The position numbers and the translations under genes were made by a program. From positions 43,374 through 107,373 of the forward strand of contig CAZKFD010000011.1 of NCBI GenBank assembly GCA_964551995.1: DNA of 64,000 bases, given 5' to 3'. This stretch comes from an uncultured Eubacteriales bacterium. GTDB lineage: Bacteria > Acidobacteriota > Aminicenantia > Aminicenantales > Saccharicenantaceae. A model generated the notes under the pieces. That model saw nothing but the letters and a program-made list of their open reading frames with translations, made no database searches and was not told the DNA's origin. This document shows positions 44,301 to 64,000 of this stretch, one piece after another (position 1 is the first letter of the stretch; every line of letters starts with the position of its first letter).

Positions 44301-44476
44301 CCGTTGTCGACGAGAATGACGACGCGGGGGAAATTCGTCTGCGGGAAGACCGACGACGGGATGGTCAGGGCCGAGTAGACGCCGCCCAGGCAGAGGGCGA
44401 TGCTGATGAAGACGATGGGCAAAGCGTGACGCGTCGCGAACCGGCCGACGGCGGAATCTTTGGCCATGAACGTCAC
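41399..44476 (-). CDS. RND family efflux permease (CzcA/CusA-like, HME subgroup likely)
   Basis: 1025 aa with 12 TM helices and two large periplasmic loops. Typical AcrB/CzcA blocks are present. GTG start overlaps the upstream stop as GTGA. Confidence 0.9.
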   Translation of the reverse strand: MTFMAKDSAVGRFATRHALPIVFISIALCLGGVYSALTIPSSVFPQTNFPRVVILVDNGVMPADEMMATITRPIEESMKDIPGVTTIRSATGRGSAEVNIFFNWKVDMIRSELYVLGRLSQIRASLPATAEAQVYRVTFSNFPIIGISLTSPKRNLIDLWEIARYQLKPRFLQIPGVARADLVGGRTPEYHIVVDPLRLQAAGLTLSEVTDALNKNNLVASTGLHEENRMLYLAVVDGRVHSIRDIENFPVTVSGKHPVLVRDFARVVRGPEPVFNIVTADGKVAVLVNIYSQPDGSTLDIARRLREELKILKNELPPDLRLAFFYDQSLLVRASVHSVWEAIIFGLILSVLILYFFLKSWRTTFVAILVIPVTVLVTLISIKAAGMSFNLMTLGGIAAAIGLVIDDAIVVVEAIHTKRTAGLGPLAAIREGLGEIFRPLIGSTLTPVVVFIPLAFLTGIPGVFFRALAMTMVVALLTSLALAGTLTPSLAAWLLKPGEPAGGEVSKEQGGRLLRRVTGIYEKGVRTALRHGGPTIAACAAVLFLSAFIYKSLESEFLPPMDEGGFVIDYLTPPGTSLAETDRQLKYAEDIIRSVPELESYSRRTGAQLGLFITEPNNGDFLLKLRPDRKRSTEEVLTELRHRLNAALPDVIWEFPGILSDLIGDLMYAPQPIEVKLFSTDTAYLKEKAPQIAERLDKIRGVVDVFNGLVYCGPAISFRVCYVDAERFGLTANDIASAVNAAMIGETASTVLEGDRVVAVRVKAEPSDIDRVEKLRHLPLRTADGQLVQLSQVVDVVEEPGQLELRRDGFRQDVAVSARLEGRDMGSAMAEIRATLGKDPTLPPGAIEYGGTYEQQQESFRNLMMVLGMAIFLVFTVLLLEFGSFYEPVAIMFGAVLALFGTVLALWITGTSLNIVSLLGVIIGIGIVAKNGILMLDFVKELRAEGLNLAEAVVRSGLRRLRPVLMTSLAAALGMLPLAYGVGSGADMLKPLAVAVIGALCISVLLSLIATPTLYYLMVRRRATE

Positions 44477-45546
44477 TTGTCCCCGATGATGTGGATCTTC
44501 GTCTCCCCGGTGATGTTGTAGGCGTCCGTGGTGACGATGACCAGGCCCTCCTTGAGCCCTTCGCCCTCGACCTCGGCCAGGCCGGCGTCGCGGAGGCCGG
44601 CCTTGACGGGCCTGGGGATGGCCTTGTCGCCTTCGACGACCATCAGCACGGTCCCGCCGGCGGGGCTGGGAACGACGCTCTCTTCGGGGACGGCGAGGAC
44701 GTCGCGGCGCTCCTCCGAGACGATCCTGACGCTCAGGAACTGGCCAGGCTTGAATTGCGCCCTCACCGGCAGGGACGTTCGGACGAGCACCGTATCGGTC
44801 TTCGGGTCGATGTCCTTGCCGACGAGTATCAACGTTCCGTATCCCTGGACCCCGGGGCCGAAATCGACCGGCTGCCCGGTTTTGAGCGGGCCTGCGTCGC
44901 GGCTCGGGATCTGGGCCGTGAGCACGAGGCGGCTGAAGGCTATGACCTCGGCCAGGACCGCGCTCGGGTCGACGGTCTGGCCGATGCGGGCGTTGATCCG
45001 GACCACCGTCCCGGAAAGAGGCGCTTTGATCTCGAGATAGGACAAGTCTGTCCGTGCCGCGGCGAGGTCGTTCCGGGCCGCCTGGAGGGCGAGAGCTGCT
45101 TCCTGGACGGCCTTCTCCGAGGTCCCGCCGGCCGGGAGCAGTTTCTTCTGCCGTTCGTAGGTCTTTTCGGCGAAATCCAGCGCCTTTTCGGCCTTGGCCA
45201 CGGCGACTTCGGCCAAGCGCGTGTCGAGGCGGAAGAGGATTTCGCCGCGTTCGACGCGCTGCCCCTCCGTGCAGCGGATCTCGGTCAGGATGCCGCCCAG
45301 CGGAAACGACAGGTCGGCTCCCGCCGCGGGCCGCCCCTCGGACGGCGGCTCGGGCTCGACGGTTCCGTAGGCCGTAACGTAGTTCCGGAGAGTCGCCCGG
45401 GTGATCTTCCCGACATGAACGGCCACGTCGGTGACGACTTCCTCTTCCTCGCCGGCCTTGTGCCCCAGGCCCTTGATGAGGACGAGAACGGCCGCCGCGG
45501 CGACCGCCAGAACGATCAACGCGGTTATGGCCCTGCGTTTATTCAT
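44473..45546 (-). CDS. RND efflux membrane fusion protein (HlyD/CzcB family)
   Basis: N-terminal TM anchor, coiled-coil hairpin (VAVAKAEKALDFAEKTYERQKKLL...), then lipoyl and beta-barrel domains. Confidence 0.9.
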   Translation of the reverse strand: MNKRRAITALIVLAVAAAAVLVLIKGLGHKAGEEEEVVTDVAVHVGKITRATLRNYVTAYGTVEPEPPSEGRPAAGADLSFPLGGILTEIRCTEGQRVERGEILFRLDTRLAEVAVAKAEKALDFAEKTYERQKKLLPAGGTSEKAVQEAALALQAARNDLAAARTDLSYLEIKAPLSGTVVRINARIGQTVDPSAVLAEVIAFSRLVLTAQIPSRDAGPLKTGQPVDFGPGVQGYGTLILVGKDIDPKTDTVLVRTSLPVRAQFKPGQFLSVRIVSEERRDVLAVPEESVVPSPAGGTVLMVVEGDKAIPRPVKAGLRDAGLAEVEGEGLKEGLVIVTTDAYNITGETKIHIIGDK

Positions 45547-46969
45547 CCTCGCGCTCCTTCTCGGGACCGGACTGCCCCGGCGCTTTCGTGTAAATCCAGT
45601 CCTTCACCTCGAGGGGGCTCTGGGCCGCGTTCTCGAGCCTCCCGACGGACTGCTGGGCTTGAACCAAAGCCTCCAGTCGGGCCTGCTCGCCGGCGTTGAG
45701 CTCGAGCTCGACGGTCAGAAGCTCGAGCGTCGAGATCTCGCCGAGCTCGTGTTTGGCCGCGGCTGCCTTCGCCTGCGCGGCGAGGTTGGCCCGGAGGTCG
45801 TCCGCCGCCTGAGCTTTCCGGAGGGCCGAGCGGCAGTCCTCGACGGCGGCGTCGAGCTCGCCGATGACTTGGGACTGAAGGGCGAGGAACGCGGCCGCGC
45901 TCGCGGCGCGTTGAGCCTCAGCCTCGGCGATCGGGCCCCGGTTGCGGCTGAAGATGGGAAGCTCGAGCGCCAGGCCGAGGGTCCATTTGCTGTCGGTCTG
46001 GTCGAGCTGGTAGTCGGGCGAGAGGCGGATGTCCGGATATTGCTTGGCGATTTCCAGGCGCAGGGCCGACTCGCTGGCCGCATATTCCGAAAGGGCGGCC
46101 AGGAGGTCGGAGCGGTTCAGGACCGCGTGGCGGCGGACCTCGCCCTCCGGGAAGTCCGGCGAGGGCGGGCGGAAGTCCTCGTAGGAAATCTGTACCCCGT
46201 CCAGGGCCTTCCTGGGGAGGCCGATCGCGGCGGCCAGCCCGGCCATCGCTTCTTCCTTGGCTCGGGCGGCCTCGATCGCGGCCAGACGGCTTCCGTCGAG
46301 CGCAACCCGCGCCTGGGAAACCTCGTAGGCCGAAACCTCTCCGGCCTCATGCTGGACATCAAGAAGCCGAACCGTTTCCCGTTGGAGTCTCTCCGCCTCG
46401 GCGAGGAGGGACTCCCGCTCGCCGGCCGCATAGGTCTCGAGCAGGGTGCTGCGCAGGCGGCTGCGCATGTCCCAGGCGGCTTTGAGGATATCCCAGCGCG
46501 CCGCCTCGGAGAGGTGCCTGGCCTCGGCAATCCTCAGGCCGCGCTTGCCGGCCGTCTCGATCGGGATCTCCAGGAGGATCTCCGGGATCCAGGGCGTCAT
46601 CAGGCTCACCGGGGTCGTGCTGTTGTATCCGACCAGGGGGTTCAGGGTCGGGTTGGGACGTTCGCCGGCCGTGATCCGGCCCGCCCGGGCCACCCCCCAC
46701 TGGGCGCGGGCGACGTCCATATCGGGATTGTAATACAGCGCGGCCAGGGTCAGAGACTTGAGATCCCATACCGCCGGCGGCCAGTCCTTGACGTCGCCGT
46801 TCTGGAGAAGGAAATCTTTGAGTTCCGTCGAGGTGAGCCTCCGGGCCTCGAACGCGTCCATGGCTTTGGCCGGTTCGATGGGCTGGGGATGGTAGCGGAC
46901 GCAGGCCGGCGTCATCGAGAGGGCAAGAGCCACGCCGATGACCATGAACAGCGCACGTGATCTCATCAT
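45539..46969 (-). CDS. outer membrane efflux protein (CzcC/TolC family lipoprotein)
   Basis: Lipobox ALSMTPAC. Duplicated OEP repeats have the typical alpha-helical-barrel periodicity. It forms a C-B-A gene order with the two downstream genes. Confidence 0.9.
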   Translation of the reverse strand: MMRSRALFMVIGVALALSMTPACVRYHPQPIEPAKAMDAFEARRLTSTELKDFLLQNGDVKDWPPAVWDLKSLTLAALYYNPDMDVARAQWGVARAGRITAGERPNPTLNPLVGYNSTTPVSLMTPWIPEILLEIPIETAGKRGLRIAEARHLSEAARWDILKAAWDMRSRLRSTLLETYAAGERESLLAEAERLQRETVRLLDVQHEAGEVSAYEVSQARVALDGSRLAAIEAARAKEEAMAGLAAAIGLPRKALDGVQISYEDFRPPSPDFPEGEVRRHAVLNRSDLLAALSEYAASESALRLEIAKQYPDIRLSPDYQLDQTDSKWTLGLALELPIFSRNRGPIAEAEAQRAASAAAFLALQSQVIGELDAAVEDCRSALRKAQAADDLRANLAAQAKAAAAKHELGEISTLELLTVELELNAGEQARLEALVQAQQSVGRLENAAQSPLEVKDWIYTKAPGQSGPEKEREDE

Positions 46970-50789: not shown

Positions 50790-50827
50790 CCCCGGAGAGA
50801 GACGCATCCGGGGTCCGGCCCTTTTTT
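50790..50827 (+). terminator. putative intrinsic terminator after the GGCT-like gene
   Basis: GC-rich inverted repeats (CCCCGGA...TCCGGGG and CCGG-GGT-CCGG) are followed by CCCTTTTTT (T6 at 50822..50827). Confidence 0.35.
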
Positions 50828-51065: not shown

Positions 51066-51074
51066 TGGTATAAT
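51066..51074 (+). promoter_or_regulatory. extended -10 promoter element (TGgTATAAT) upstream of the CE4 deacetylase gene
   Basis: TG at 51066..51067, then TATAAT at 51069..51074. It is 40 nt upstream of the ATG at 51114. Confidence 0.35.
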
Positions 51075-51113
51075 GAGACCTCGCCGGAGCGGCTCCGGCC
51101 CCCGTGGGAGACG

Positions 51114-51929
51114 ATGAAAATCAAAATCGCTTTGGCCGCGACGGGAGTGTCCCTGGCCGTCATGGCGCTTCCGGCCTGGGCGCTCGCTTCGCTCTGGAGC
51201 GCCGGGCCGGCCTTTCAGGTCTGGTGGGGGATCCTGGCTTTGGCCGCCGACGGGGTCATTCTCGACGGCGTTTTCCGCCATCACGCGCCCGTTTTCGGCC
51301 GAGTCTTCTGGCGGGGAGACGAAGACCTCCGGGCCGTAGCGCTGACGTTCGATGACGGCCCTAACGGTCCCCACACCTCGCGCATCCTGGACGTGCTCGG
51401 CGCGGCGGGCGTCAAGGCGACATTCTTTCTCCTCGGCCGTAACGTTCGGCGTTTTCCGGATCTCGTGGCGAGGATCGCGGGCGAGGGGCATGAGATCGGG
51501 AACCACGGGCTTAGCCACAGCCCTCTTGCACTCAAGTCTCTGGCCGACGTCCGCCGGGAGATCCGGACGACGGCCGCCCTCATCCGGGAGGCGTCCGGCG
51601 GGGCGGAGGCCCGGCTCTTCCGGGCCCCACACGGCTGGAGGAATCCCTGGACGAACGCCGCCGTCCGCGCCGAAGGATGTCTCCCCGTGTCCTGGACATT
51701 CGGCGTCTGGGACACGTCCCGCCCAGGGGCGGAGGTGATCGTCCGCCGCACGCTGCGGGGTCTCGGAAACGGCTGCGTCTTCCTTTTCCATGACGGGCGG
51801 GGCACGGAAGAGGCTGCGGACTCGAGCCAGCTGGCCGAGGCCCTGCCCGAGATCATCGCCGAGATCCGTAGACGAGGATATGATTTCCTGACTCTTTCCG
51901 AGATGATGACGAGGTCGCGGCGGGCATGA
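51114..51929 (+). CDS. polysaccharide deacetylase (NodB homology domain, CE4) with N-terminal membrane anchor
   Basis: N-terminal hydrophobic segments, then TFDDGP (motif 1 Asp-Asp), HEIGNHGLSH (His-His metal ligands), RAPHGW (motif 3) and LFHDG. Confidence 0.85.
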   Translation: MKIKIALAATGVSLAVMALPAWALASLWSAGPAFQVWWGILALAADGVILDGVFRHHAPVFGRVFWRGDEDLRAVALTFDDGPNGPHTSRILDVLGAAGVKATFFLLGRNVRRFPDLVARIAGEGHEIGNHGLSHSPLALKSLADVRREIRTTAALIREASGGAEARLFRAPHGWRNPWTNAAVRAEGCLPVSWTFGVWDTSRPGAEVIVRRTLRGLGNGCVFLFHDGRGTEEAADSSQLAEALPEIIAEIRRRGYDFLTLSEMMTRSRRA

Positions 51930-52903
51930 ACCGGCGCCGGGTCGTTTCGCTCATCTCGCTCGCGGCGTCGTTGGCCGTTCTCCTCCTTCTGTTCTCCCGC
52001 ATGAACCTGGCGCTGGCGGCCCGCTCCCTGACCGAGATCCGCTGGGGCTGGGTCCTGGCGCTGGCCCTGCTGAACATCGTTCACACGTGGGTCGAGGCGG
52101 AGCGATGGAACCTGATCATCTCGTCGGTCAAACCGGACTCCCGAGTGCCGCAGGCCTTCGCGGCCATCCTGGTCGGCGTCCTCGGCAACATCCTCCTGCC
52201 CCTCAGGCTGGGGGACGGCGCGAGAGCCCTCTTCCTGGCCAGGAAGCAGAAGATGCGGTTTTCGGGCGCCCTGTCCACGGTCGTCCTCGACCGGGTCGTC
52301 GATATCGCCTTTTTCCTGGCTCTTGTCGGCGTCACAGCCCTCTTTTTCCCGTTCTCGTCGTCCCAGAGGAGGACCTTCGCCGTCTCCGCCCTCGCTCTGG
52401 CCGTGGTGGTGGCCGTCCTCATTCTCCTCGCCAAGGGCAGCCTGAGCGCAAAAGTGAGGTCTCTCGGAAAGCCGGGCCGGGCGGTGAGCGATCAGATCGC
52501 GCACCTGAGGATTGGGGTCTCGGCCCTGAGGAACGCGGGCATCATGCTCCCGACCGGAGCCCTGGCCGCCCTGTCGTGGATCATGCGGGCGACGCTCGTC
52601 TGGATGATGTTCCGAGCTTTCCGGCTGGATCTGCCGGTTTTGGACGCCGCCGTGACGCTGATCCTGCTGAACGTGGGCACAGCCGCGGTCAACACGCCGG
52701 CCAACGTCGGCGGCTTCGAGCTTTCGGTGGTGGCCGCTCTGGCCCTCTTCGGCGTCGAGACGGAAAGAGCCCTGAGTTTCGCCGTGCTTCTTCACGCCGC
52801 GGAGATCATCCCCGTGGTCTTCCTCGGGCTCGGCGTCCTCTGGCTGACGGGCTTCCGCATCGAGGCCCCGGGGCCGGGCGTTAATTCAGAGAAAACCGGA
52901 TAG
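51926..52903 (+). CDS. flippase-like integral membrane protein (lysylphosphatidylglycerol synthase TM-domain / UPF0104 family)
   Basis: 325 aa, about 8 TM. The start overlaps the CE4 stop (ATGA). Family-typical conserved Arg/Glu residues in TM2-3 (WVEAERWNL) and a G-rich LGNILLPLRLGDG loop. Confidence 0.8.
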   Translation: MNRRRVVSLISLAASLAVLLLLFSRMNLALAARSLTEIRWGWVLALALLNIVHTWVEAERWNLIISSVKPDSRVPQAFAAILVGVLGNILLPLRLGDGARALFLARKQKMRFSGALSTVVLDRVVDIAFFLALVGVTALFFPFSSSQRRTFAVSALALAVVVAVLILLAKGSLSAKVRSLGKPGRAVSDQIAHLRIGVSALRNAGIMLPTGALAALSWIMRATLVWMMFRAFRLDLPVLDAAVTLILLNVGTAAVNTPANVGGFELSVVAALALFGVETERALSFAVLLHAAEIIPVVFLGLGVLWLTGFRIEAPGPGVNSEKTG

Positions 52904-54086
52904 GGTTCGCGGCGTCGCGCGTCCCATCCCATTGTTGGGGCGGACGGCCGAGCGGATTCTGTTCCGGGCGTTCTGCAGGCCGCTTGAGTGCGCGCCTGTA
53001 GACATCGGCGATGCGCTCGGCGATCCTCGGCCAGGCGAATTCCTGGGCCTTCCTCAGTCCGGCCTGCCGCATGACCCAGCGGTAGGCGGGGTCGTCGATC
53101 AGGTTCACGATCGCCCGGGTCCAGGCCTCCGTGTTGAAGGGGGGGACCATGACGGCCTCTCTTCCGCCGGCGATGAGTTCCCGGAATCCGATGATGTCGG
53201 AGGCGACGATCGGGGTGCCGCAGGCCATGGCCTCCAGAAGCGTGATCCCGAACGAGGCCCGCGTGGTCGGGCAGAGATACAGGTCCGAGCTGCCGTAGCA
53301 GTCCGGGCGCTCTTCGAAAACGTGCCCCATGAACTTGACGCTGGCCCCGAGGTCGCGAGCCTTCCGCTCGTAGTGGGAACGGAGAGGCCCGTCCCCGGCG
53401 ACGACCAGCTCCGCGTTCGAGTACCGGGCCAGCACCCCGGGCATGGCATCGAGAATCGTTTGGAGGCCGTTGCGGGGGTCGAGACGGCCGAGAAACAGGA
53501 GTCTCGGCCCTTGCTTGAGGGCGTCGTTCGGCTGCCGGCCGTTGGGATGAAAATATCTCACCTCGATCCCGTTCGGGATGATCTCCCAGTCGGCCCGGAA
53601 ATAGCGGGAGTGGGCCTGGATCACGGGTTCGCTGACGGCGATCTTGACGGCGATCGCATCCATGAGGATCTGCATGGGCTTTTGAAGAAGACGATAAGGG
53701 GGAGATCCCGGAAACCAGGAATGGAACGTGGCGACGACCGGAAGACGAAGCCTGTAGGCCGCCCATTGACCGACCATCCCCAGCGTGGGGGCCAGGGCAC
53801 CGTGAAGATGGATGAGCTCGATGCGGTCCTCGCGGAGAATCCGTTCGATGTCCCTCAGGAGCGTCCGGCCGGTGCTCACACGGGCGAAAGATCCGTTGCT
53901 GTAGATCAGCCGGCTCTTCCCGACGCGGCGGACGAACGGCTCGTCCCCGCTCTCGCCGGCCATGTGGGACGTGATGATCGTCGCCGAGTGGCCCATCGCC
54001 CTGAGCTCGCGGGCAAGGTGATGCACGTGCTCGGTCACGCCGCCGAGGTGCGGATAATAGAATTCGGTGATGAGCGCGATGCGCAT
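52881..54086 (-). CDS. GT4 family retaining glycosyltransferase
   Basis: MRIALITEFYYPHLGGVTEHVHHLAREL is the GT4 N-terminal motif. The C-terminal EX7E-type region reads FGITLLEAMACGTPIVASDIIGFRELI. Convergent with the flippase-like gene (23-nt overlap). Confidence 0.9.
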   Translation of the reverse strand: MRIALITEFYYPHLGGVTEHVHHLARELRAMGHSATIITSHMAGESGDEPFVRRVGKSRLIYSNGSFARVSTGRTLLRDIERILREDRIELIHLHGALAPTLGMVGQWAAYRLRLPVVATFHSWFPGSPPYRLLQKPMQILMDAIAVKIAVSEPVIQAHSRYFRADWEIIPNGIEVRYFHPNGRQPNDALKQGPRLLFLGRLDPRNGLQTILDAMPGVLARYSNAELVVAGDGPLRSHYERKARDLGASVKFMGHVFEERPDCYGSSDLYLCPTTRASFGITLLEAMACGTPIVASDIIGFRELIAGGREAVMVPPFNTEAWTRAIVNLIDDPAYRWVMRQAGLRKAQEFAWPRIAERIADVYRRALKRPAERPEQNPLGRPPQQWDGTRDAANPIRFSLN

Positions 54087-54147: not shown

Positions 54148-54510
54148 TCACTTTATGATTTTGATGAACGTGGCCTCGTTGACGCCTTCGGCCGTTGTCG
54201 TGTAGCGCACCCGGACCTCTTCGCCTTTGACAACCTTGTCCAGGGTCAATGGTTTCCCTTTCGCGTCGTAGATCGTGGTCGTGGGCTTGACTAGGAACAT
54301 CAGTTTGGCGTTGGTTTTGTTGATGACCGTGATCTCGGATTTCGTCGCCGCGTCCGCGTCCGCCAGCGTCACCGCATCGACGGTCCCGACGACGCCCTTC
54401 GTCGGGACGTGGGGCGGCTTCGGCGCCGGGTTGGACTGCTGGCTGAAGCCCAGGAATGCAAATCCCGCCACGAACAGGATTGATGCCAGAGTCACGGCAA
54501 ACTTTCTCAT
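54148..54510 (-). CDS. small secreted beta-rich hypothetical protein (OB-fold/CusF-like topology, no metal ligands evident)
   Basis: GGGAGG RBS. Signal peptide MRKFAVTLASILFVAGFAFLGFSQQ. Mature region is about 95 aa (KGVVGTVDAVTLADADAATKSEITVINKTNAKLMFLVKPTTTIYDAKGKPLTLDKVVKGEEVRVRYTTT...). The 10 N-terminal residues of the track ORF are excluded. Confidence 0.6.
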   Translation of the reverse strand: MRKFAVTLASILFVAGFAFLGFSQQSNPAPKPPHVPTKGVVGTVDAVTLADADAATKSEITVINKTNAKLMFLVKPTTTIYDAKGKPLTLDKVVKGEEVRVRYTTTAEGVNEATFIKIIK

Positions 54511-54727
54511 CTTCGCCTCCCGCACGGATTCGCTCTCCATTCCTGTCGGTGACGTCTCGCGCCTCCACCGCTCCCTCGGTTCTCACCTCCCCAGATTTCC
54601 GCGCCCATCATACGCCGGAGCGCGTTACAGGCCGATTAAAATAAGATTAAAAAATTCTCATCTTTCGGCATCGACGGCCGGAGAGAGGCGAACCGGGCGG
54701 GGCGCCCGGCCGGAGACGAGCTGCCGG

Positions 54728-56209
54728 TCAATGGGAGGAGGGAAGGTGGACGGTGAAAGCCGTCCCTTTTCCGACCCGGGTGGAGACCTCGATTCTCCCC
54801 CCGTGGGCTTCCGCGATGGCTTTGGCGATGGTCAGGCCCAGACCGAATCCCGCCGGCCCACGCTTTCTCTCGGCCCGGTAGAAGCGGTCGAAGATATGGG
54901 GCAGGTCCCGGTCGGAGATCCCCGGCCCCGTGTCGCCGATAGTGATCTTGGCGCCGCCGGCGTCCCGGCCGACGGTGGCGGTCACGGTGCCACCCGGGGG
55001 AGTGTATTTCAGGGCGTTATCCAGCAGGTTCAGGAACAGCTGCTTGAGCCGGGACCTGTCGGCGCGGACGATGATCCCCTCGGGGGCCGTGATCCCGAGG
55101 CCGATGCTCTTCTGCTCCGCCGAGACCGTGAGGTCGGCCCCGATCTCGCCAACGAGCTGCCCGACGTCGACCGAGCTCTTGTCGAGCGTCATGGTGTTAC
55201 TGTCGTAGCGGGCCGCCGTCAGCAGGTTTTCGGAGAGAGTCGCCATCCTGTCGACCTCCTCGAGGCCGCTGCGCAGGATCTCCTCGTACTCCTCGGGCGA
55301 GCGGCTCTTCATGAGCGCCACTTCGATCTCGCCCTTGAGGACCGAGAGCGGCGTCCGGAGCTCGTGGGACAGGTCCTCGACGAACTGGCGCTGGCTCGAG
55401 AACGAACGTTCGAGCCGGTCGAGCATGCCGTTGAACGTCTCGGCCAGCCTGCGGATCTCATCTTCCGCCGCCGTTTTCGGCAGGCCGATGCGGGCCTTGA
55501 GGTTCTCGGCCGTGATGCCCCGGATCGTGTTGATCATCCGGTCGACCGGATTCAGGGTGATCTTGGCGAGAAAGACGCCGACGAGCCCACTGGCGACCAT
55601 GAGGGCGGGGAAGAGCAGGAACAGCAAGAGCTTCAAGTGGTTGAGGGTTGCGGAAAGCGACGTCAGCGGCGAGATCACCTGGATGGCGTAGGCCGGCCGC
55701 CCGTCTTCCAGGGCCAGCAAGGAGAAGGCCCTCAGCTTGACGCTCCGGCCGGGAACTGTCTCAGCGGACATGTCCGTCAAGCGGCCCGCCGGGCCCAGGC
55801 TCGAGACCGGCTCCCTGAGCGGGACGTCCCCGGCCGACGGAATCTTGCGGGAGGATGCAATCAGGGCCCCGTCGGCGTCCAGGATCCGGACGTCGATATT
55901 CAGCAGCACGGGATCGTCGATCTTCTCGAGCAGCCAGCGCTGGACGATCCGGTTGAAGTTCAGGTTGTGGATCTTGGTCAGGCCGGCGGGAGGCACGCCG
56001 GCCCGCACGGCGTCCGCCTTCTCGGCCTCCCAGAAGGCGTTGATGGAATCCCGGATCCCGCTGGCCTTGGAGGAGAGGAGGTCATTGATGTCGTCCTGAA
56101 GGTTCTGGTTAACGTAGTGATAGAGCACGGTGCCGAACACCACAAAGGTCAATGACAGCACGGCCAGATACCAGAGGACGATCCGCGTGCGGAGCGAGGT
56201 CAGCGCCAT
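54728..56209 (-). CDS. sensor histidine kinase (2 TM, HAMP, HisKA, HATPase_c)
   Basis: H-box VEDLSHELRTPLS, N-box LNLLDNALKYT, G-boxes DTGPGIS and GFGLGLTIA. Confidence 0.9.
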   Translation of the reverse strand: MALTSLRTRIVLWYLAVLSLTFVVFGTVLYHYVNQNLQDDINDLLSSKASGIRDSINAFWEAEKADAVRAGVPPAGLTKIHNLNFNRIVQRWLLEKIDDPVLLNIDVRILDADGALIASSRKIPSAGDVPLREPVSSLGPAGRLTDMSAETVPGRSVKLRAFSLLALEDGRPAYAIQVISPLTSLSATLNHLKLLLFLLFPALMVASGLVGVFLAKITLNPVDRMINTIRGITAENLKARIGLPKTAAEDEIRRLAETFNGMLDRLERSFSSQRQFVEDLSHELRTPLSVLKGEIEVALMKSRSPEEYEEILRSGLEEVDRMATLSENLLTAARYDSNTMTLDKSSVDVGQLVGEIGADLTVSAEQKSIGLGITAPEGIIVRADRSRLKQLFLNLLDNALKYTPPGGTVTATVGRDAGGAKITIGDTGPGISDRDLPHIFDRFYRAERKRGPAGFGLGLTIAKAIAEAHGGRIEVSTRVGKGTAFTVHLPSSH

Positions 56210-56210
56210 A

Positions 56211-56879
56211 TCAGCCTTTCAGTGTGTAGCCGCGGCCCCGGAGCGTGCTGATGAGCGGCTTCGAGCGGTTCTGGTCGACCTTTTTCCGGAGATAATTGAT
56301 GTAGACGTCGATGACGTTTGAAAAGGAGTCGAAGTTCATGTCCCAGACGTGTTCGGCGATCATCGTCCGGGTGACGACAGTGCCCTCGTTCCGCATCAGG
56401 TATTCCAGGAGGGCGAATTCCTTCGGTGTGAGGGCGACCTCCTCCCCGCCGCGGGTTACGCGATGGGTCACGACGTCCATCACGAGGTCGTCGACCTGGA
56501 GCTTCGTCGCGTCCCGGGAATCCTTCTTTCGCAAAAGAGCCCGGCAGCGGGCCAGGAACTCCTCGAAGGCGAAGGGCTTGGTCAGGTAATCGTCCGCTCC
56601 CGCGTCCAGCCCGACGACCTTGTCCCGCACCCTGTCTTTGGCCGTGAGCATGAGGATGGGGACGGCGAGGCCCTTTTCGCGCAGATTCCGGCACAGGCTC
56701 AGGCCGTCCATCTTGGGGAGCATCAGGTCGAGCACGATGAGATCGTATTTCTCCGTGGTGGCCAGGAAATACCCCTGCTCCCCGTCGTCGGCGACATCGA
56801 CGCTGTAGCCTTCTTCCTTGAGACCCCGCCTGACGAAGGAAGCGATCTTGGCTTCGTCCTCGATGACAAGAACTCTCAC
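56211..56879 (-). CDS. OmpR-family response regulator
   Basis: MRVLVIEDE...DLIVLDLMLPKMDG...LTAKD receiver domain plus a winged-helix output domain. Confidence 0.9.
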   Translation of the reverse strand: MRVLVIEDEAKIASFVRRGLKEEGYSVDVADDGEQGYFLATTEKYDLIVLDLMLPKMDGLSLCRNLREKGLAVPILMLTAKDRVRDKVVGLDAGADDYLTKPFAFEEFLARCRALLRKKDSRDATKLQVDDLVMDVVTHRVTRGGEEVALTPKEFALLEYLMRNEGTVVTRTMIAEHVWDMNFDSFSNVIDVYINYLRKKVDQNRSKPLISTLRGRGYTLKG

Positions 56880-57892: not shown

Positions 57893-59206
57893 TCAGTCGG
57901 TCACGGGCAGGCCCGTCGCCCGGTCGAGGGCCGTCTGGCTCAGGACAAACTCGTAGAGGGCCCGGAGCTTGAGGAACTGGGCCTCGACGAAGGCGTCTTC
58001 GGTGTCCAGAAGATCCAGGTTCGTGATGGTGCCGGCTTCGTAGCGGGCTCTGGCGAACTCCAGGGCTTTTTTGGCCTGCTCGATGTCGACCTCCACGGAG
58101 CGGAGTTTTTCTTCGCTGGCTTTCACGTCGGAAACCGCTTGCAGGACTTCGGACCGGATCAGGTCGTCGAGCTCGCGCGTCCGGTTTTTGATAGCCGTGA
58201 GCCCGGCTTCCGCTTCCGCCTTCAGGCTTCGAGTGAGGCCGCCGTCAAAGATGGGAACATCGACCTGGACGGCGGCCACGTAATCGAGCTTCCAGGTGTT
58301 GACGTTGGGGATATAGCCGTTCTTCGTTCCGCCGAGGATGTTCAGGCTGACCGAGGGCCGGTCGCGGAGACCGGCGACGCGAACCTGGAGGTCGGCCGTC
58401 CGGATCAGGTTCTGGAGGGCCCGGGCCTCCGGCCGCTTCTGCCACGCGTCCTTGATAAGCGCGTCGGGGTCGAGGGCCATCTCGCGGTAGGTGAATTCGC
58501 CGCGGAGCTTGAGCGGGGCGACGGATTCAAAGCCCATCAGGCGGCGCAGGGCAAGCTCCTGCTTTTCCATGCTGTTCTCGAGGTCGACGATCTGGTTCTG
58601 GGCCGCGACGAGCCGGACCTGCGTATTGAGCACCTCGAGCTCGGTCGCCGTTCCGATGGCCAGCTTCTTGCGGCTGATCTGGATGTGGTCGTTGAGGTCC
58701 CGGACGTGGTCGTTTTCGACGCGGATGCTCTCCTGGAGGAAGAGAATGGCGTCGAAGAGTTGGGCGGTCTCGAACGCGAGATCGCGCTTCATCAAGTCCC
58801 TGTGGTCCTCGGCCGTCGCCACTTCGGACGTGGAAAGTCTGACCGATTCCTTGGTCCGTCCGCCGTCGTAGATCAGCTGGCGGAGGCCGGCGTGGAGGTC
58901 GAAATTATTGGCCGGGTACAGTTCGAAGGTGCCGAGGCCGGGGACGGCCAGGACTTCCAGCGGCCCGATCCGGGTGTATGAGAGGCTGCCGGCGAAGTTG
59001 GGCTTGAGGGCCGTGCGGGATTCATCGACGCGGGCCAGGGAGACGGCCACGGAATCCGAGGCCTCCTTGAGGGCGGGGTTGTGGGCCAGCACGATCCGCA
59101 CCGCATCCTCGAGGCTGAGCGAGTCGGCTTCGGATGTCTGGGGGAATGCCGACAGGGGGAGAAAAAGGACCAGAAGAATCAAAATGTTCACGCGAAGATG
59201 TCTCAT
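57893..59206 (-). CDS. TolC-family outer membrane efflux protein
   Basis: Signal peptide MRHLRVNILILLVLFLPLSAFPQ. Two OEP repeats with the typical heptad pattern. 437 aa. Confidence 0.85.
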   Translation of the reverse strand: MRHLRVNILILLVLFLPLSAFPQTSEADSLSLEDAVRIVLAHNPALKEASDSVAVSLARVDESRTALKPNFAGSLSYTRIGPLEVLAVPGLGTFELYPANNFDLHAGLRQLIYDGGRTKESVRLSTSEVATAEDHRDLMKRDLAFETAQLFDAILFLQESIRVENDHVRDLNDHIQISRKKLAIGTATELEVLNTQVRLVAAQNQIVDLENSMEKQELALRRLMGFESVAPLKLRGEFTYREMALDPDALIKDAWQKRPEARALQNLIRTADLQVRVAGLRDRPSVSLNILGGTKNGYIPNVNTWKLDYVAAVQVDVPIFDGGLTRSLKAEAEAGLTAIKNRTRELDDLIRSEVLQAVSDVKASEEKLRSVEVDIEQAKKALEFARARYEAGTITNLDLLDTEDAFVEAQFLKLRALYEFVLSQTALDRATGLPVTD

Positions 59207-59289
59207 CGTCGTTCACCTTTCGGTCCGTCTTGTTACGGGATTCGCCCCGGCCGCGGCCCCGGCCGGCGGCGTCCCTGAACGATCGCCGG

Positions 59290-60321
59290 CTACTTGATCC
59301 GGATCTTGATCTCGACCGACATTCCGGGGCGCAGGGGAAATTCCCTCCGAAGCTCGGGGTTCATGTCGTCCAGGTAGATCCGCAGCGGCACCCGCTGCGT
59401 AATCTTGGTGAAATTGCCCGAGGCGTTGTCGGGTGGGATGAGTGAGAACTGGGCGGCCGTGTAATCGTAGATCAAACCGACCTTCCCGGTGAAGGTCCGG
59501 CCGGGATAGGTGTCGATCGTGACCGTCGCCGGATCCTGCAGCCTGATGTGGCCGAGCTTGGTCTCTTCGAGGTTGGCCGTCACCCAGATGCGCTCGGTCT
59601 CGTAGATCGTGAAGACGGGCTGCCCGGGCTGGACGATATCCCCCTCCATCAGCCAGCGCTTCGAAACGATCCCGTCGAAAGGGGCCACGACGGTCATGTT
59701 CTGCAGCTGCGTCTCGGCGACGCCCAGCTGGGCCTTGGCCACACCGATTCGGGACACGGCGATGGCATATTCCGCCCGGGCCGCGTCCAGGGTCTGTTGG
59801 GCGTGGATATGCTGCTCCTTGGTGATGACCGAATTCTTGTATTGCAGATCCGCCCTTTCGAAATCGTCCGAGGCCCGGTCGACGTTGACCTTGGCCAGCT
59901 CGAGGCTGTTCTCGGCCAGGCTGAGACCGGCCCTGGCCTGCTCCACCTGGGCCCGGACGTCCGTGTCGTCGAGCTGGATCAGCAGCTGGCTCCTCTTCAC
60001 CGCGCCCCCCTCGTCAACCGTCAGCCGGACGATCCGGCCGAGGACCTTGGTGCTGATCGAAACCCGGTCGGCGTCCAGGTAGGCGTCGTCCGTGGAAACG
60101 TAGTTGAGCAGGTTCTTGTACCAGTACCAGGCCCCGAGAGCCATGGCCAGGACGAGGAGAAAGAAGGGAATGAGAACCCGCTTCTTCCGGTAGAGGGGGA
60201 CATGATTGATCGCTTCGTTGTCCTCGCCGCCGTTCGGCGGCGTCGCGGCATCCGGCGGAGGATCGGCCGGCCCGGTGCTGGCCCGGCCAGCGGGCCTAGG
60301 CTCTTTCGGTCCCTGTTCCAT
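59290..60321 (-). CDS. HlyD-family membrane fusion / secretion protein (EmrA-like)
   Basis: Low-complexity cytoplasmic N-terminus, one TM (VLIPFFLLVLAMALGAWYWY), a long coiled-coil (VRAQVEQARAGLSLAENSLELAKVNVDR...), then lipoyl/beta-barrel domains. The true start may lie downstream of 60321. Confidence 0.85.
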   Translation of the reverse strand: MEQGPKEPRPAGRASTGPADPPPDAATPPNGGEDNEAINHVPLYRKKRVLIPFFLLVLAMALGAWYWYKNLLNYVSTDDAYLDADRVSISTKVLGRIVRLTVDEGGAVKRSQLLIQLDDTDVRAQVEQARAGLSLAENSLELAKVNVDRASDDFERADLQYKNSVITKEQHIHAQQTLDAARAEYAIAVSRIGVAKAQLGVAETQLQNMTVVAPFDGIVSKRWLMEGDIVQPGQPVFTIYETERIWVTANLEETKLGHIRLQDPATVTIDTYPGRTFTGKVGLIYDYTAAQFSLIPPDNASGNFTKITQRVPLRIYLDDMNPELRREFPLRPGMSVEIKIRIK

Positions 60322-60766
60322 AAGTGGATCTCCTTCGTTCGAGGTTCGCCCGGATATGCTCCAGAAGCCGCCGCAGCAACTTTTTCTCTTCTCCCGTCAG
60401 ACCCGACAGCAGCCGCCTCTCCTGGCTGCGCCAGACACGGAGAACGGGGCCCTCCAGCACCCGGCCTTTCCGCGTCGCATAAACCCGCGTCACCCGGGCG
60501 TCGTCCTTGTCGGGGCGGCGCCCGACGAGGCCGGCTTTAGCCATGCGCCGGAGCATAATGCTGACTGTGGCCTGTTCCACACCGAGCCGTTCCGCCAGCT
60601 GCCCCTGGGATAGGCTATGGCCGGCACAAAGGTGGATGAGCAGGAGCTCCTGTCCGACGCGCAGTCCGAGCCGTCCGAGCGCCCTTTCTCCCTCCTGACG
60701 AAAGGCCTTGTGGGCCATGACGAATTCGATGCCCACGAAGCCCGCAAGTTGCTTGACGGTCGTCAT
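60296..60766 (-). CDS. MarR family transcriptional regulator
   Basis: 156 aa. wHTH region reads LSQGQLAERLGVEQATVSIMLRRMAKAGLVGRRPDKDDARVTRVYATRKG. Confidence 0.85.
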   Translation of the reverse strand: MTTVKQLAGFVGIEFVMAHKAFRQEGERALGRLGLRVGQELLLIHLCAGHSLSQGQLAERLGVEQATVSIMLRRMAKAGLVGRRPDKDDARVTRVYATRKGRVLEGPVLRVWRSQERRLLSGLTGEEKKLLRRLLEHIRANLERRRSTYGTGTERA

Positions 60767-60882: not shown

Positions 60883-62196
60883 TCACCGCCAGCGGTAGCC
60901 CGTTGTGAACTCGAAAGCGCTGCGCGTGAGGTTCGCGTCGCTCGTCCGGGAAAACTGGAATTCGAGCCGGACGTTCCGGAAGATATACCAGGTGACCCCG
61001 GCCGCGTAGATGTTGCCCGGGGTGGGGAGCAGGTCCTGGATGGTCAGGTCCTCGAGCAGCCGGGTGCCGTGGCCGTAGCCGACCGAAATGAAGTTGTCGG
61101 TCGAAAAATACCGCCGGAGGTTGAGGACCCAGGAAAAGGTGGCGTTTCCATTTTCGGAGCCGTAATTCAGGCGGACGTAGGGATAGTAGTTCCCCAGATA
61201 ATAACCCACGGAGCCCAGGACGAGCGTCATCGGCCGGTCCACGAAGCTCATGTGCCAGACGCCGACCGACACCTCCGCCGCGGATAGGATCCCCTGATAG
61301 ATTTCAATGAGCGCGGATAGCCTCGGGTAATAGACGGCTTCGGGCGAATAACTCAGGTCGATCCGGGCATAGGCTTTCGTCCAGAGCCGCGGATAGGCTT
61401 CGGCCTCGAACTGACGGTCCGTCTCGGCATAGCGGTGGGTCTGGTTGTATTTCAGGGCCATGACGCCGGTATCGCCGGGGAGGCCGAAGAGCACCGCGAC
61501 CTGATCGTCCTGGAAATCCGCCCGGCCGTCGCTCCAATCGTCCACCTCGTGGCCGTAACGGACCTCGAGCCTCGGCTCCAGCCGCGGCGTCGACGACGTC
61601 AGGAAGATCTTGTAGTCGTCGTTCGCCGGGTCGAGAGCGGCGGCTTTCTCGAAGTCTTCCCGGGCCCGACCCCGGTTCCCCTGCCACTGCTCGACGAGTC
61701 CGAGATGGAAATAGGCGTCCGCGTTCCGAGGGTCGCGGGCGAGCACTTTCTGAAGGATGGTCCGGGCCTCGGCGAAGTCCCCGCGCCGCGCCGCGATGTC
61801 GGCAGTGCCGACCAGGGCCCCCTCGTTGGCCGGGTCGAATCCGAGAACCTCGCGGTACCGGGCGAGGGCGTCGGCATACCGCCCCTTCCAGGTGAGGAGC
61901 CTCGCCATGAACAGGAGGACGTCCCCGTTCCTGGGGAAGAGGGCGTTCATCCTCTCGAGCCGGGACAGGGCCTTGTCTCTTTCTCCGGAGCGGGAATAGG
62001 CCTGGACGAGAAGGAAGTTGACGTCGTAATTAGCCGGCGCCGACTCGAGGAGGTCGAGGCAGATCGTGATCGTCGCCGCGTAATCCTTCTGCTGGAGGGC
62101 GCGCTGCGCCCGGTCGTACGGACGGTTGTCGTCGGCGGCCCACAGCTGAGAAATTCCGACCAAGAGAGCCAGTGCGATCGCGGTTGTTCTTTTCAT
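60883..62196 (-). CDS. YaiO-family outer membrane beta-barrel protein with N-terminal TPR repeats
   Basis: Signal peptide MKRTTAIALALLVGISQLWA. About four TPR units (AYSRSGERDKALSRLERMNALFP..., ADALARYREVLGFDP..., AEARTILQKVLARDP..., GRAREDFEKAAALDP). A C-terminal amphipathic beta-strand region ends in an aromatic-rich terminus (FTTGYRWR). ATG at 62196 overlaps the upstream gene's stop as ATGA. Confidence 0.75.
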   Translation of the reverse strand: MKRTTAIALALLVGISQLWAADDNRPYDRAQRALQQKDYAATITICLDLLESAPANYDVNFLLVQAYSRSGERDKALSRLERMNALFPRNGDVLLFMARLLTWKGRYADALARYREVLGFDPANEGALVGTADIAARRGDFAEARTILQKVLARDPRNADAYFHLGLVEQWQGNRGRAREDFEKAAALDPANDDYKIFLTSSTPRLEPRLEVRYGHEVDDWSDGRADFQDDQVAVLFGLPGDTGVMALKYNQTHRYAETDRQFEAEAYPRLWTKAYARIDLSYSPEAVYYPRLSALIEIYQGILSAAEVSVGVWHMSFVDRPMTLVLGSVGYYLGNYYPYVRLNYGSENGNATFSWVLNLRRYFSTDNFISVGYGHGTRLLEDLTIQDLLPTPGNIYAAGVTWYIFRNVRLEFQFSRTSDANLTRSAFEFTTGYRWR

Positions 62197-63614
62197 GGCT
62201 GTTCGTGCTCCAGCGTGAACCCCTTCTTTTCCATTGTCCCCCACTCATTCCGGCCGCAGGCCAGGTCCCAGAAGGCCTTGACCCGGACGGCGGCGAGCCA
62301 CTGCCGATACACGAGATTTTCCAGGATGCCGAAGACCGTGATGGTGATGACATCCACCAGGCGCGGATAGCGCTGCAGGGAGTATTCCTCGAGGAGGATG
62401 GCCGTGAGCGAGAGGAGCATTCCATAGACGACGGCCAGGAGAAAGAAGCGAACGGCGAACGGAGAGTCGACTTGGCCGGTGACGATGAAATAGAGGAAAA
62501 GGATGTAGCCAAGGATCTCAATAGGAGGTCCCAACATCTCAAAGATCATGTAGAACGGCATGGCGACCATCCCGGTCGCCCCGTAGCGGGGATTGAACAT
62601 CATCCTCAGGTTCCGGGTGAGGACATCGACGAGTCCCCGGTGCCAGCGGTTCCTCTGCCGGGCCAGGGTCTTGAAGTTTTCTGGGGCTTCGGTCCAGCAA
62701 ATGGGGTCGGGGATGAAGGTGATGCGATAGGGAATCCTCCGCTCGTGGAGGTGCCGGCGGAGGCGGACGACCAAATCCATGTCCTCGCCGATAGTCTCCT
62801 TCCTGTAGCCGCCGATCTGAAGTGCCATATCCTTTCGGAATAGGCCGAAGGCTCCGGAGATGATGAGGAGGCAGTTCATCATGCTCATCCCCATCCTTCC
62901 GCCGAGGAAGGCCCTCAGGTATTCGAGGATCTGGAAGCGGGCCAGGGCGTTGCGCGGCATCCCGATCCTGTGGACTTGACCGCTCTTGATCACGCATCCG
63001 TTGCTCAGCCGCACGACTCCCCCGACGCCGACAGTCCGCTCGGGGTCTTCGTGAAAGGGCCGGACGACCTTGAGGAGGGCATCGCGGTCGAGAATGGAGT
63101 CCGCGTCGATCGCGCAGAACAGCGGGTAGCGAGCGATATTGAGACCGGCATTCAGCGCGTCCGCCTTTTTGCCGTTGACTTTGTCTACGACGACGAGCTT
63201 GGGCTCCTGGGGCGACATGTAGATTCCGTGGACAGGCGCCGTCTCGATGGATTTGCGGAAGACCCGGCTTGTTTTTTTCAGGTCAAAGGCGCGGATGAGT
63301 ATGTCGAGCGTGGCATCGGTCGACCCGTCATTGACGATAATGACCTCGTAGAGCGGGTATTCGAGGGTCAGAAGCGACCGGACGCTCTCGATAATGCCCT
63401 GCTCTTCGTTGTAGGCCGGGGCGATGATTGAGATCGGTTTGGCCAGCGGGAGGGTGAAGATCTCGTTCAGCCGGACATAGCTGGTCAGCCTCTGGTAGCG
63501 CAGGATGCCCACAAGCGAGAGGAGGACGAAGAGCAGATAGAAACTGTTGATCAGGAGGAAATAGACCAGGATGGAATCGGAGACGAGGCGGAAAAGAAAG
63601 TCGAGCACGTTCAC
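62193..63614 (-). CDS. GT2 family processive membrane glycosyltransferase (PgaC/IcaA/YaiP-like synthase)
   Basis: N-terminal TMs, then a GT-A domain with DGSTD, DAD (CAIDADS) and QRNRWHRG (QxxRW) motifs. C-terminal TM helices follow. Confidence 0.9.
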   Translation of the reverse strand: MNVLDFLFRLVSDSILVYFLLINSFYLLFVLLSLVGILRYQRLTSYVRLNEIFTLPLAKPISIIAPAYNEEQGIIESVRSLLTLEYPLYEVIIVNDGSTDATLDILIRAFDLKKTSRVFRKSIETAPVHGIYMSPQEPKLVVVDKVNGKKADALNAGLNIARYPLFCAIDADSILDRDALLKVVRPFHEDPERTVGVGGVVRLSNGCVIKSGQVHRIGMPRNALARFQILEYLRAFLGGRMGMSMMNCLLIISGAFGLFRKDMALQIGGYRKETIGEDMDLVVRLRRHLHERRIPYRITFIPDPICWTEAPENFKTLARQRNRWHRGLVDVLTRNLRMMFNPRYGATGMVAMPFYMIFEMLGPPIEILGYILFLYFIVTGQVDSPFAVRFFLLAVVYGMLLSLTAILLEEYSLQRYPRLVDVITITVFGILENLVYRQWLAAVRVKAFWDLACGRNEWGTMEKKGFTLEHEQP

Positions 63615-63616
63615 CC

Positions 63617-64000
63617 TCAGTCCCCTTGCGAATACGAGAAGTCCTCCAGAGCCATGACCGCCATGTCCGAGGCGAAACGGTCAGCTTTCTGCCTTGCCAC
63701 TTCCTTCAGCCTGCGGAAGCCGAGGGGGCCGAGGTTGAGGAGCCCTTCCCGGGCATTGTACCGTACGTGCCAGATGGGAGAATACAGACCCCGCGTCAGG
63801 ATGACCAGGGCAGAGGGGTTCTTCAGGTTTCCCAAGCCCTTGAGTGCCTGTGCCTGGACCTCCCATTCCCGGTCTCCGGCCATCTGCTCCAAGGTGTCGT
63901 ATGATTCGGGGATCAGAAGCCGGCTTAGGGCTCTGGCGACCTTGATCCTGACCTCTTTCTCGGGGTGACTCGCGTAGGCTTTGATCTCGGGATACAGAGC
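63617..64000 (-). CDS. HEAT/PBS-lyase-type repeat protein, 3' part (5' end lies beyond the window)
   Basis: The frame stays open up to the window edge (...ALYPEIKAYASHPEKEVRIKVARALSRLLIPESYDTLEQMAGDREWEVQAQALKGLGNLKN...). Its stop lies 2 nt before the GT2 start. Confidence 0.65.
   Translation of the reverse strand, partial: ALYPEIKAYASHPEKEVRIKVARALSRLLIPESYDTLEQMAGDREWEVQAQALKGLGNLKNPSALVILTRGLYSPIWHVRYNAREGLLNLGPLGFRRLKEVARQKADRFASDMAVMALEDFSYSQGD

Follow-up and report, generated by a model that had tools for sequence, protein, structure and literature searches.

The DNA analysed here is a 64,000-nucleotide stretch (hereafter the window) of contig CAZKFD010000011.1 from an uncultured bacterium placed by GTDB in the Aminicenantales (Acidobacteriota). 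The contig also occurs in ENA and JGI metagenomes. The window is GC-rich, at about 65%, and contains three adjoining genes that form a candidate module for an amino-sugar-bearing membrane lipid. The first encodes a carbohydrate esterase family 4 (CE4) deacetylase of the NodB type, referred to as D (51114-51929, plus strand, 271 aa, PF01522). It is followed by F, a UPF0104 membrane protein resembling the flippase domain of MprF (51926-52903, plus strand, 325 aa, PF03706 and TIGR00374), and by S, a PimA-like glycosyltransferase of family 4 (GT4) with Glyco_transf_4 and Glycos_transf_1 domains (52881-54086, minus strand, 401 aa), which is predicted to transfer an N-acetyl-hexosamine (HexNAc) to a lipid headgroup. 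The ATG of the flippase gene overlaps the TGA of the CE4 gene (GGCATGAACC, ATGA), an arrangement consistent with translational coupling of the two, and the GT4 and flippase genes are convergent, their 3' ends overlapping by 23 nt. The same trio had been noted in a preliminary description of this DNA, and its composition and coordinates are borne out by the Pfam matches and by a strong coding signal in all three open reading frames (ORFs; GC content at third codon positions, GC3, 0.80-0.87). In the window lineage, purifying selection acts on each of the three, the ratios of nonsynonymous to synonymous substitution rates (dN/dS) being 0.15-0.22 overall, 0.15 for the GT4 and 0.17-0.20 for the CE4.

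The deacetylase matches PF01522 (Polysacc_deac_1; E = 2.4e-30, 105 bits) and no other Pfam family. Its CE4 signature is complete: motifs 1, 2, 3 and 5 supply a catalytic Asp, the metal-binding Asp-His-His triad and the conserved Arg and His. The catalytic and metal-binding residues D80, D81, H131, H135, R170 and H226 are invariant among orthologues, as are the motifs in which they lie (TFDD with its aspartates at 80-81, H131-x3-H135, R170-x-P and H226-D227). Comparison of the family profile with solved structures retrieved chitin and peptidoglycan N-acetylglucosamine (GlcNAc) deacetylases with up to 165 bits. The enzyme class is established, and a lipid-borne amino sugar as substrate and a cytoplasmic location are predicted for it. 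Because of two hydrophobic segments at the N-terminus (residues 1-19 and 36-54), the protein can be regarded as membrane-anchored, as had been noted before. Among 112 CE4 homologues of the subtype found in the window (type B, see below), Lys or Arg is found at the very start of the protein, the loop joining the helices carries no charge and a conserved RR..R..R follows the second segment. From these features the N-terminal helices are predicted to form a hairpin that leaves the catalytic domain on the cytoplasmic side. The CE4s of the other subtype (type A) retain only the second hydrophobic segment and the basic stretch, which appears compatible with the same sidedness. The predicted cytoplasmic position of the catalytic domain favours the order in which a sugar is added, deacetylated and then flipped with its lipid, and it thus fits the sequence of events proposed in the preliminary description.

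The flippase-like protein matches PF03706 (LPG_synthase_TM; E = 1.3e-45) as well as TIGR00374 and has at least seven hydrophobic segments. Sequence searches of the PDB, with the single sequence or with a 12-sequence profile, gave no match. When an AlphaFold model of the protein (pLDDT 84.5) was submitted to Foldseek, the top matches were all MprF structures (7duw, 9j8s and 6lvf; probability 1.0, TM-score normalised to query length, TMq, 0.51-0.56), and the best structures other than MprF reached a TMq of at most 0.28. As modelled, F has the fold of the N-terminal transmembrane flippase domain of MprF, and a flipping activity is presumed from this likeness.

The GT4 has no transmembrane segment. 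PimA, the mycobacterial phosphatidylinositol alpha-mannosyltransferase, is by far its closest solved relative: the single sequence gave 151 bits and the family profile 246 bits, and the alignment covers the full length at about 30% identity; the next one, BshA, reaches 123 bits. A firm grouping with GT4s that use soluble acceptors had been named beforehand as grounds for refuting the preliminary description, and the enzyme does not group with them, since PimA, which modifies a phospholipid headgroup, is clearly its best solved relative. Residues of PimA that were tested functionally (PMC9202250) were mapped onto 86 members of the GT4 family. On the acceptor side the family resembles PimA: the 86 sequences share R68, H118, R196 and R201 with it, as well as the greater part of the 59-70 lipid-binding loop. 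An aromatic residue at the position of PimA Y9 is found only in the 55 operon-linked GT4s and is replaced by Asp in 31 that are linked to a hydrolase gene. Conservation of the phosphate-binding Arg (R68) together with the lipid loop fits a phospholipid headgroup as acceptor.

The donor side differs. In all 86 GT4s E274 is replaced by Ala (or a gap), K202 by Asn, and E199 is deleted; the position of R228 holds Asp in 81 of the 86, and that of D253 is variable. The GDP-mannose site of PimA, formed by E274, K202 and E199 with the guanine contacts R228 and D253, is therefore not found in this family. Its motifs read PRNG in place of PRKG, with loss of the Lys that contacts the beta-phosphate, and ASFG in place of ESFG, with loss of the first Glu of EX7E. 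BshA, a UDP-GlcNAc enzyme, keeps both the Lys and the Glu in the same alignment, so that the change is a peculiarity of the subfamily rather than a simple switch from GDP to UDP. The obligate link to a de-N-acetylase argues for a HexNAc donor.

The likeness to PimA (PDB 2GEJ and 4N9W) thus lies in the GT-B fold of GT4 enzymes, the lipid loop and the four acceptor-side residues, and probably also in the action of a peripheral membrane enzyme on a phospholipid polyol, which for the window protein is predicted. Unlike PimA, these GT4s have the GDP-mannose residues replaced, stand outside a pgsA1/patA context and are obligately linked to a de-N-acetylase; for these three reasons the automatic JGI name, 'phosphatidylinositol alpha-mannosyltransferase', is probably wrong for them. 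No NCBIfam equivalog claims the GT4. With the GpgS model NF053787 the window protein obtained 61 bits and its relatives in loci L013 and L004 66 and 63 bits, against a cut-off of 480. Orthology with GpgS was rejected on these scores, which are about the same as that of PimA itself (65 bits). Even the best GTDB match to the window GT4 is only 64% identical.

Co-conservation of the three genes in relatives had been set beforehand as a test of the preliminary description, and it held in nine unrelated metagenome contexts and in 48 of the 80 best GTDB loci. In the nine contexts GT4, CE4 and flippase genes form co-directional operons in the order S-D-F. Three of them were reached through flippase relatives (L004, L007 and L009; 59, 50 and 48% identity), three through GT4 relatives (L013, L015 and L097; 65, 63 and 61%) and three through CE4 relatives of about 50% identity, namely an Acidobacteria metagenome-assembled genome (MAG; L099), a Syntrophobacteraceae MAG (L100) and a 2.4-Mb contig (L101). 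Stop and start codons overlap within these operons (4-nt overlaps), and the flanking genes differ at every one of the nine loci. Given so many unrelated genomic neighbourhoods, the side-by-side clustering of the three families is far beyond chance. The module belongs to the S-D-F class in that genes for a glycosyltransferase, a de-N-acetylase and a UPF0104/MprF-like protein lie together and are inherited as a set.

The GTDB loci come from a scan of one genome per species in which the GT4 alignment was used as query; at least 569 loci were obtained and the best 80 were examined. These belong mostly to Gemmatimonadota, with a few Candidatus Eisenbacteria and single MAGs labelled Krumholzibacteriia, Binatia, Dormiibacterota and Bacteroidota. 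In the 48 loci mentioned above the GT4 gene is directly followed by the CE4 and flippase genes, and two further loci are truncated at the end of a contig. One complete Gemmatimonadales MAG chromosome (L042, OY970192.1) has the GT4 and CE4 genes adjoining at 6001-7787, followed by an M16 peptidase gene and without a flippase; it is the only locus with sufficient flanks in which S and D occur without F.

CE4 and flippase are both absent from 29 of the 80 loci, all of which fall in one GT4 sub-clade: 28 share one core clade, and L094 groups next to L044 and L056, which do carry the triad. An alpha/beta-hydrolase gene lies directly upstream of the GT4 gene in 28 of the 29 and also in L044 and L056, and it is absent from the other triad loci. 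The hydrolase-GT4 pair stands alone at L040, L046-L048, L050-L053, L055, L057, L058, L060, L062, L063, L065-L067, L071, L074, L076-L078, L081, L083, L085, L086, L092 and L094, and it is joined by CE4 and flippase at L044 and L056, which are basal in the sub-clade. Where PimA has Y9 and Q18, the hydrolase-linked GT4s of this Gemmatimonadota sub-clade have Asp and Pro. Basal members of the sub-clade retain the CE4-flippase pair and derived ones have lost both genes; three MAGs carry the hydrolase-GT4 pair together with a canonical triad. Possibly the hydrolase-linked GT4 is a paralogue that has taken on a new function and uses another acceptor.

Two subtypes of the module can be distinguished, type A of the Gemmatimonadota/Krumholzibacteria kind and type B of the Acidobacteriota/Desulfobacterota kind, and the genes of the window do not all belong to the same one. 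In bootstrapped neighbour-joining trees built for each of the three proteins, the GT4s of the window and of its relative L010 lie inside the type-A clade (bootstrap 100%). The CE4s and flippases of the same two loci group with those of the type-B locus L004 (88 and 93%, respectively) and stand outside the type-A D/F clade (100%). Identities follow the same pattern, being 63-65% to type A and 38-42% to type B for the GT4, 39-43% and 47-58% for the CE4, and 21-22% and 37-56% for the flippase. As judged from the trees, the window module is an evolutionary hybrid, composed of a type-A GT4 and a type-B deacetylase and flippase. The type-A GT4 gene is inverted and lies behind a two-component system, next to the type-B D-F pair, and this hybrid arrangement is retained in relatives at 71-84% identity. 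Since neither half is found elsewhere except in complete operons, the GT4 and the D-F pair of the window most probably work together. The combination further points to one kind of lipid as the product of both types.

Taken together, the S-D-F module most likely makes an amino-sugar-bearing membrane lipid, with the GT4 as synthase, the CE4 as deacetylase and the MprF-like protein as flippase, a reading to which a probability of roughly 0.7 can be given. What is established is the family and fold to which the proteins belong, that catalytic residues are intact, and that the genes are tightly co-inherited and under purifying selection; from this the sugar, the lipid, the sidedness, the flipping, the physiological role and the two-component control are predicted. 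At the cytoplasmic face of the inner membrane, the peripheral GT4 would attach a HexNAc to an anionic phospholipid, on its polyol headgroup. Its donor would most likely be GlcNAc from a UDP-sugar, and its acceptor most likely phosphatidylglycerol (PG), by analogy with the enzyme GpgS discussed below, phosphatidylinositol being possible in view of the PimA-like acceptor site. The membrane-tethered CE4 would then strip the N-acetyl group on the cytoplasmic side and expose a protonatable amine, after which the MprF-like protein would move the resulting zwitterionic lipid to the outer leaflet. The membrane surface would thereby become less negative, as it does with lysyl-, alanyl- and glucosaminyl-PG (Lys-PG, Ala-PG and GlcN-PG), and the cell would be protected against cationic or membrane-active compounds.

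Several points weigh against this reading. The flippase activity of GpgF and HexF, the counterparts of F in the two characterised systems, is itself still putative (PMC12713373, PMC10128005), and the sidedness of the CE4 was derived solely from the positive-inside rule. The GT4 lacks the PimA-type Lys202 and Glu274, both canonical in GT4s, and as BshA keeps the two residues, the donor and the catalytic details of the enzyme are uncertain. The acceptor lipid is not readable from the sequence, and the function proposed for the family is deduced from comparative genomics throughout. Furthermore, the window GT4 is located outside the D-F operon, inverted, and belongs to another subtype, so that its partnership with D and F in this genome is argued from adjacency and complementarity. 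If the GT4 were not their partner, it would serve some other role under the two-component system and the orphan D-F pair would use a glycosyltransferase encoded elsewhere. The opposite strand, the separate transcription unit, the difference in subtype (bootstrap 100%, 88% and 93%) and the lack of a common promoter motif would suit such a separation. It is nonetheless improbable, as the type-A GT4 and type-B D-F clades otherwise occur in complete operons and each half is incomplete alone, as the juxtaposition has been kept at 71-84% identity with all genes under purifying selection, and as no second GT4, CE4 or flippase, nor any remnant of one, was found within the 64-kb window.

The acceptor leaves room for two further readings. 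The same module could act on something other than a phospholipid, either a neutral glycolipid or, in an Arn-like manner, a polyprenyl-phosphate-linked sugar destined for lipopolysaccharide or an envelope polymer; in the Arn-like route a CE4-type enzyme takes the formyl group off a lipid-linked sugar ahead of flipping. ArnD is a NodB-fold enzyme acting on undecaprenyl-phosphate-linked 4-formamido-4-deoxy-L-arabinose, and PglA, PglH and PglJ, to which the GT4 has weak NCBIfam matches, are GT4s acting on glycans linked to undecaprenyl diphosphate. A glycolipid acceptor has a precedent in HexSDF, which acts on monohexosyl-diradylglycerol (PMC10128005). Such an acceptor is unlikely here, given that the conserved R68 and lipid loop fit a phospholipid headgroup and that no initiating phosphoglycosyltransferase, GT-C transferase, polymerase or ligase is conserved beside the module; moreover, the neighbourhoods of the module are unrelated between loci, and a widely occurring endogenous lipid is therefore expected as acceptor. 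That it is phosphatidylinositol is quite unlikely too. The product would in that case be glucosaminyl-phosphatidylinositol and the module would correspond, in bacteria, to the first three steps of glycosylphosphatidylinositol (GPI) anchor synthesis, widespread in Gemmatimonadota, Acidobacteriota and Desulfobacterota, and the lost Lys and Glu would mark a new donor-site solution among GT4s. Mycothiol and bacillithiol synthesis (MshA/MshB and BshA/BshB) also proceed by a GT4 and then a de-N-acetylase, and MshA and BshA are among the weaker matches of the window GT4, which brings up a soluble glucosaminide pathway resembling that of the low-molecular-weight thiols, with the membrane protein as exporter. 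This is very improbable, however, since PimA scores twice as high as BshA or MshA, the deacetylase is membrane-anchored, the third gene encodes an MprF lipid-flippase fold, and no cysteine ligase or other downstream gene is conserved. Finally, the CE4 might deacetylate an exopolysaccharide, with the GT4 and UPF0104 genes as unrelated neighbours. A synthase-type exopolysaccharide locus (60883-63892) lies 7-10 kb away, with genes on the minus strand for a PgaC/chitin-synthase-like glycosyltransferase of family 2 (GT2; 62193-63614), a protein combining TPR repeats with a YaiO beta-barrel (60883-62244) and a HEAT-repeat ORF (63617-63892). The GT2 and barrel genes, at 60883-63614, have no deacetylase of their own in the window, and chitin or peptidoglycan is the substrate of the CE4s with the closest solved structures. 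The CE4 is, on the other side, apparently coupled in translation to the flippase, it lies between GT4 and flippase in every relative examined, none of which has a GT2/TPR locus nearby, and its predicted cytoplasmic catalytic domain would be on the wrong side for a PgaB-like role. A PgaB-like role of the CE4 with the nearby GT2/TPR locus was rejected on synteny and topology, and the exopolysaccharide alternative as a whole is extremely improbable.

To return to the amino-sugar lipid, the control of its synthesis can be sketched from the surroundings of the three genes. Upstream of the GT4 gene and on the same minus strand lie genes for a sensor histidine kinase with HAMP, HisKA and HATPase domains (54728..56209) and an OmpR-family response regulator with receiver and Trans_reg_C domains (56211..56879), both assigned by Pfam and kept in synteny in the relatives L010-L012. 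A MerR/TipAS regulator gene is situated further upstream, again on the minus strand. Between the kinase and the GT4 is an ORF for a small exported protein (54148..54510, minus strand) composed of a Sec-type signal and about 95 beta-rich residues. It has a GC3 of 0.81, is 62% identical to the syntenic ORF of L010 with a dN/dS of 0.26, has no Pfam or NCBIfam match, and is a possible accessory of the module. An AT-rich island between the kinase and this ORF contains a direct repeat, TTTTAATC-N3-TTTTAATC (54634..54652, minus strand), which is a candidate response-regulator box. The octamer TTTTAATC occurs just twice in the 64-kb window, both times in this repeat, which is conserved in L010, a 78%-identical relative. 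The repeat lies 21 nt upstream of a TATGAT -10 element (54607-54612, minus strand) and overlaps the corresponding -35 position, and its spacing of 11 bp is typical of OmpR/PhoB-type sites. A candidate OmpR/PhoB-type box may therefore stand in place of the -35 element and would drive the small ORF and the GT4 through the adjacent regulator.

The CE4-flippase unit has a candidate extended -10 promoter of its own, TGGTATAATGAG (51066..51077, plus strand), about 40 nt upstream of the CE4 ATG; two relatives, L102 and L010, share this putative element in the form TG(G/C)TATAATGAG. A terminator-like hairpin (50810-50822) closes the GGACT-family gene upstream of the CE4. No promoter motif was found in common between the region upstream of the CE4 and those upstream of the small ORF, the GT4 or the response regulator. 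Because the GT4 gene lies behind the two-component system and the small exported protein, the committed step would seem to be under two-component control, and D and F would still be transcribed from an extended -10 promoter of their own. Two-component genes adjoin the module in the window and L010, in L097 and in L100. In L097 a histidine kinase and a sigma-54-dependent regulator lie directly downstream of the flippase (9773-12743), and in L100 a hybrid receiver/HisKA_3 kinase stands beside the module (7886-8968).

Genes for resistance-nodulation-division (RND)-type efflux flank the module on both sides in the window (41399-46969 and 57893-60766, minus strand). They adjoin it in three independent contexts, which are the window, L004 (1-5478) and L101 (1-4442). 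MerR/TipAS and MarR regulators accompany the RND genes of the window, and together these genes hint at a shared envelope-defence neighbourhood. The recurrence of two-component and RND genes beside the module fits a role in envelope stress or resistance.

The three-step logic of the module has precedents. HpnI/HpnK/HpnL and ArnC/ArnD/ArnEF similarly combine glycosyl transfer to a lipid, deacylation of an amino sugar and a dedicated translocator; HpnL and F fall in one Pfam family, and D shares the NodB fold with ArnD. The hopanoid parallel drawn in the preliminary description holds for this scheme; the module is of neither the HpnL nor the Arn type. In NCBIfam only the generic TIGR00374 was matched at E <= 0.01, so that membership in HpnL was rejected, and there are no hopanoid or Arn genes near the module in the window. 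The Hpn and Arn systems also differ in using GT2 enzymes where the window has a GT4, and in having hopanoid or undecaprenyl phosphate as acceptors. In the early steps of GPI synthesis, the GT4 PIG-A adds GlcNAc to a phospholipid polyol on the cytoplasmic side and PIG-L de-N-acetylates it on the same face before translocation. Here the suggested parallel stands, with matching chemistry, predicted order and sidedness, although PIG-L is an LmbE-family enzyme rather than a CE4 and the GPI flippase is unrelated to MprF. With MprF itself, the lysyl-/alanyl-PG synthase-flippase, the module shares the flippase-domain fold and the Pfam family of F, and the predicted outcome of an amine on an anionic lipid at the outer leaflet. 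It differs in that no aminoacyl-tRNA-dependent synthase domain is present and in that the amine would come from a deacetylated sugar through two separate enzymes.

The nearest precedents were described recently. In Pseudomonas aeruginosa, GpgSDF (PA14_56030-56050), reported in 2025, consists of a GT4, a deacetylase and a UPF0104 protein and produces GlcN-PG, also when expressed in Escherichia coli, with lipidomic proof (PMC12713373). In Clostridioides difficile, HexSDF with its regulators HexRK, reported in 2023 and likewise proven by lipidomics, forms an aminohexosyl-hexosyl-diradylglycerol and has a role in resistance to membrane-active antibiotics (PMC10128005). The window family is like GpgSDF in its three-step logic, in the S-D-F gene order of its relatives, in an S that would be a cytoplasmic GT4 acting on a phospholipid headgroup, and in an F that is a UPF0104 (COG0392) membrane protein; GpgD is, moreover, predicted to act on the cytoplasmic side. 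It is unlike GpgSDF in its deacetylase, GpgD being a soluble COG3233-type protein (PMC12713373, Table 2) and the window D a membrane-anchored PF01522 NodB protein. With HexSDF, whose HexD and HexF were compared by annotation, the family shares a D of the polysaccharide-deacetylase (NodB) type, an F formed by an MprF-like flippase domain only and an adjoining two-component system, HexRK controlling the Hex module. In contrast, HexS is annotated as being of the monogalactosyldiacylglycerol-synthase type (PMC10128005) and the window S is a GT4, the Hex acceptor is a glycolipid in a Gram-positive membrane, and the Hex authors favour flipping before an extracellular deacetylation, whereas the topology of the window D points to cytoplasmic deacetylation.

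The window family thus combines a Gpg-like GT4 with a Hex-like NodB deacetylase and adjacent two-component system, and it is an orthologue of neither Gpg nor Hex at S, nor of Gpg at D. The idea of an uncharacterised glycolipid pathway, raised in the preliminary description, has to be divided accordingly: the family matches no curated equivalog, but its logic is precedented by HexSDF and GpgSDF. The logic of the module is already known, and the enzyme family is a widespread, uncharacterised variant. No description of this S-D-F family was found in the literature searched, and nothing usable was found in that on Gemmatimonas polar lipids.

Elsewhere in the window, the region 2034-24006 looks like a plant-glycan utilisation region. 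It contains three GH127 beta-L-arabinofuranosidase genes (8977-11511, 20133-22214 and 22255-24006), genes for a protein with an alpha-L-arabinofuranosidase C-terminal domain (12291-14897) and for a BNR/Sortilin protein (6092-8980), an FGGY sugar kinase gene and a fucose-isomerase-like gene. Judged by gene content (GH127, BNR/Sortilin, RND pumps) and by the type-B relatives, an origin in Acidobacteriota or Desulfobacterota might be guessed. Four long plus-strand ORFs with a strong coding signal, at 24076-27369 (1097 aa), 36631-37887 (418 aa), 38874-40274 (466 aa) and 470-1744 (424 aa), have no Pfam match at E <= 1e-5. An Rfam scan of 47-58 kb gave a PrrB/RsmZ match of 23 bits against a gathering score of 44 bits, which was taken as chance, and a tRNA scan found none.

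S-D-F amino-sugar lipids have so far been shown in two pathogens only, and the window family indicates a third, non-orthologous version of this solution. It is common in phyla of uncultured bacteria from soil, peat and sediment, namely Gemmatimonadota, Acidobacteriota, Desulfobacterota, Krumholzibacteriia and Eisenbacteria, with single MAG matches in Binatia, Dormiibacterota and Bacteroidota. Its points of interest are a non-canonical active site, in a GT4 subfamily that operates without two residues thought canonical, a predicted cytoplasmic NodB enzyme acting on a lipid, and a hybrid arrangement wired to a two-component system, in which a type-A synthase paired with a type-B deacetylase and flippase amounts to a natural module-swapping experiment. 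The assignment proposed here would correct the widespread automatic annotation of these enzymes as phosphatidylinositol mannosyltransferases, and it predicts a class of zwitterionic glycophospholipids to be sought in environmental lipidomes.

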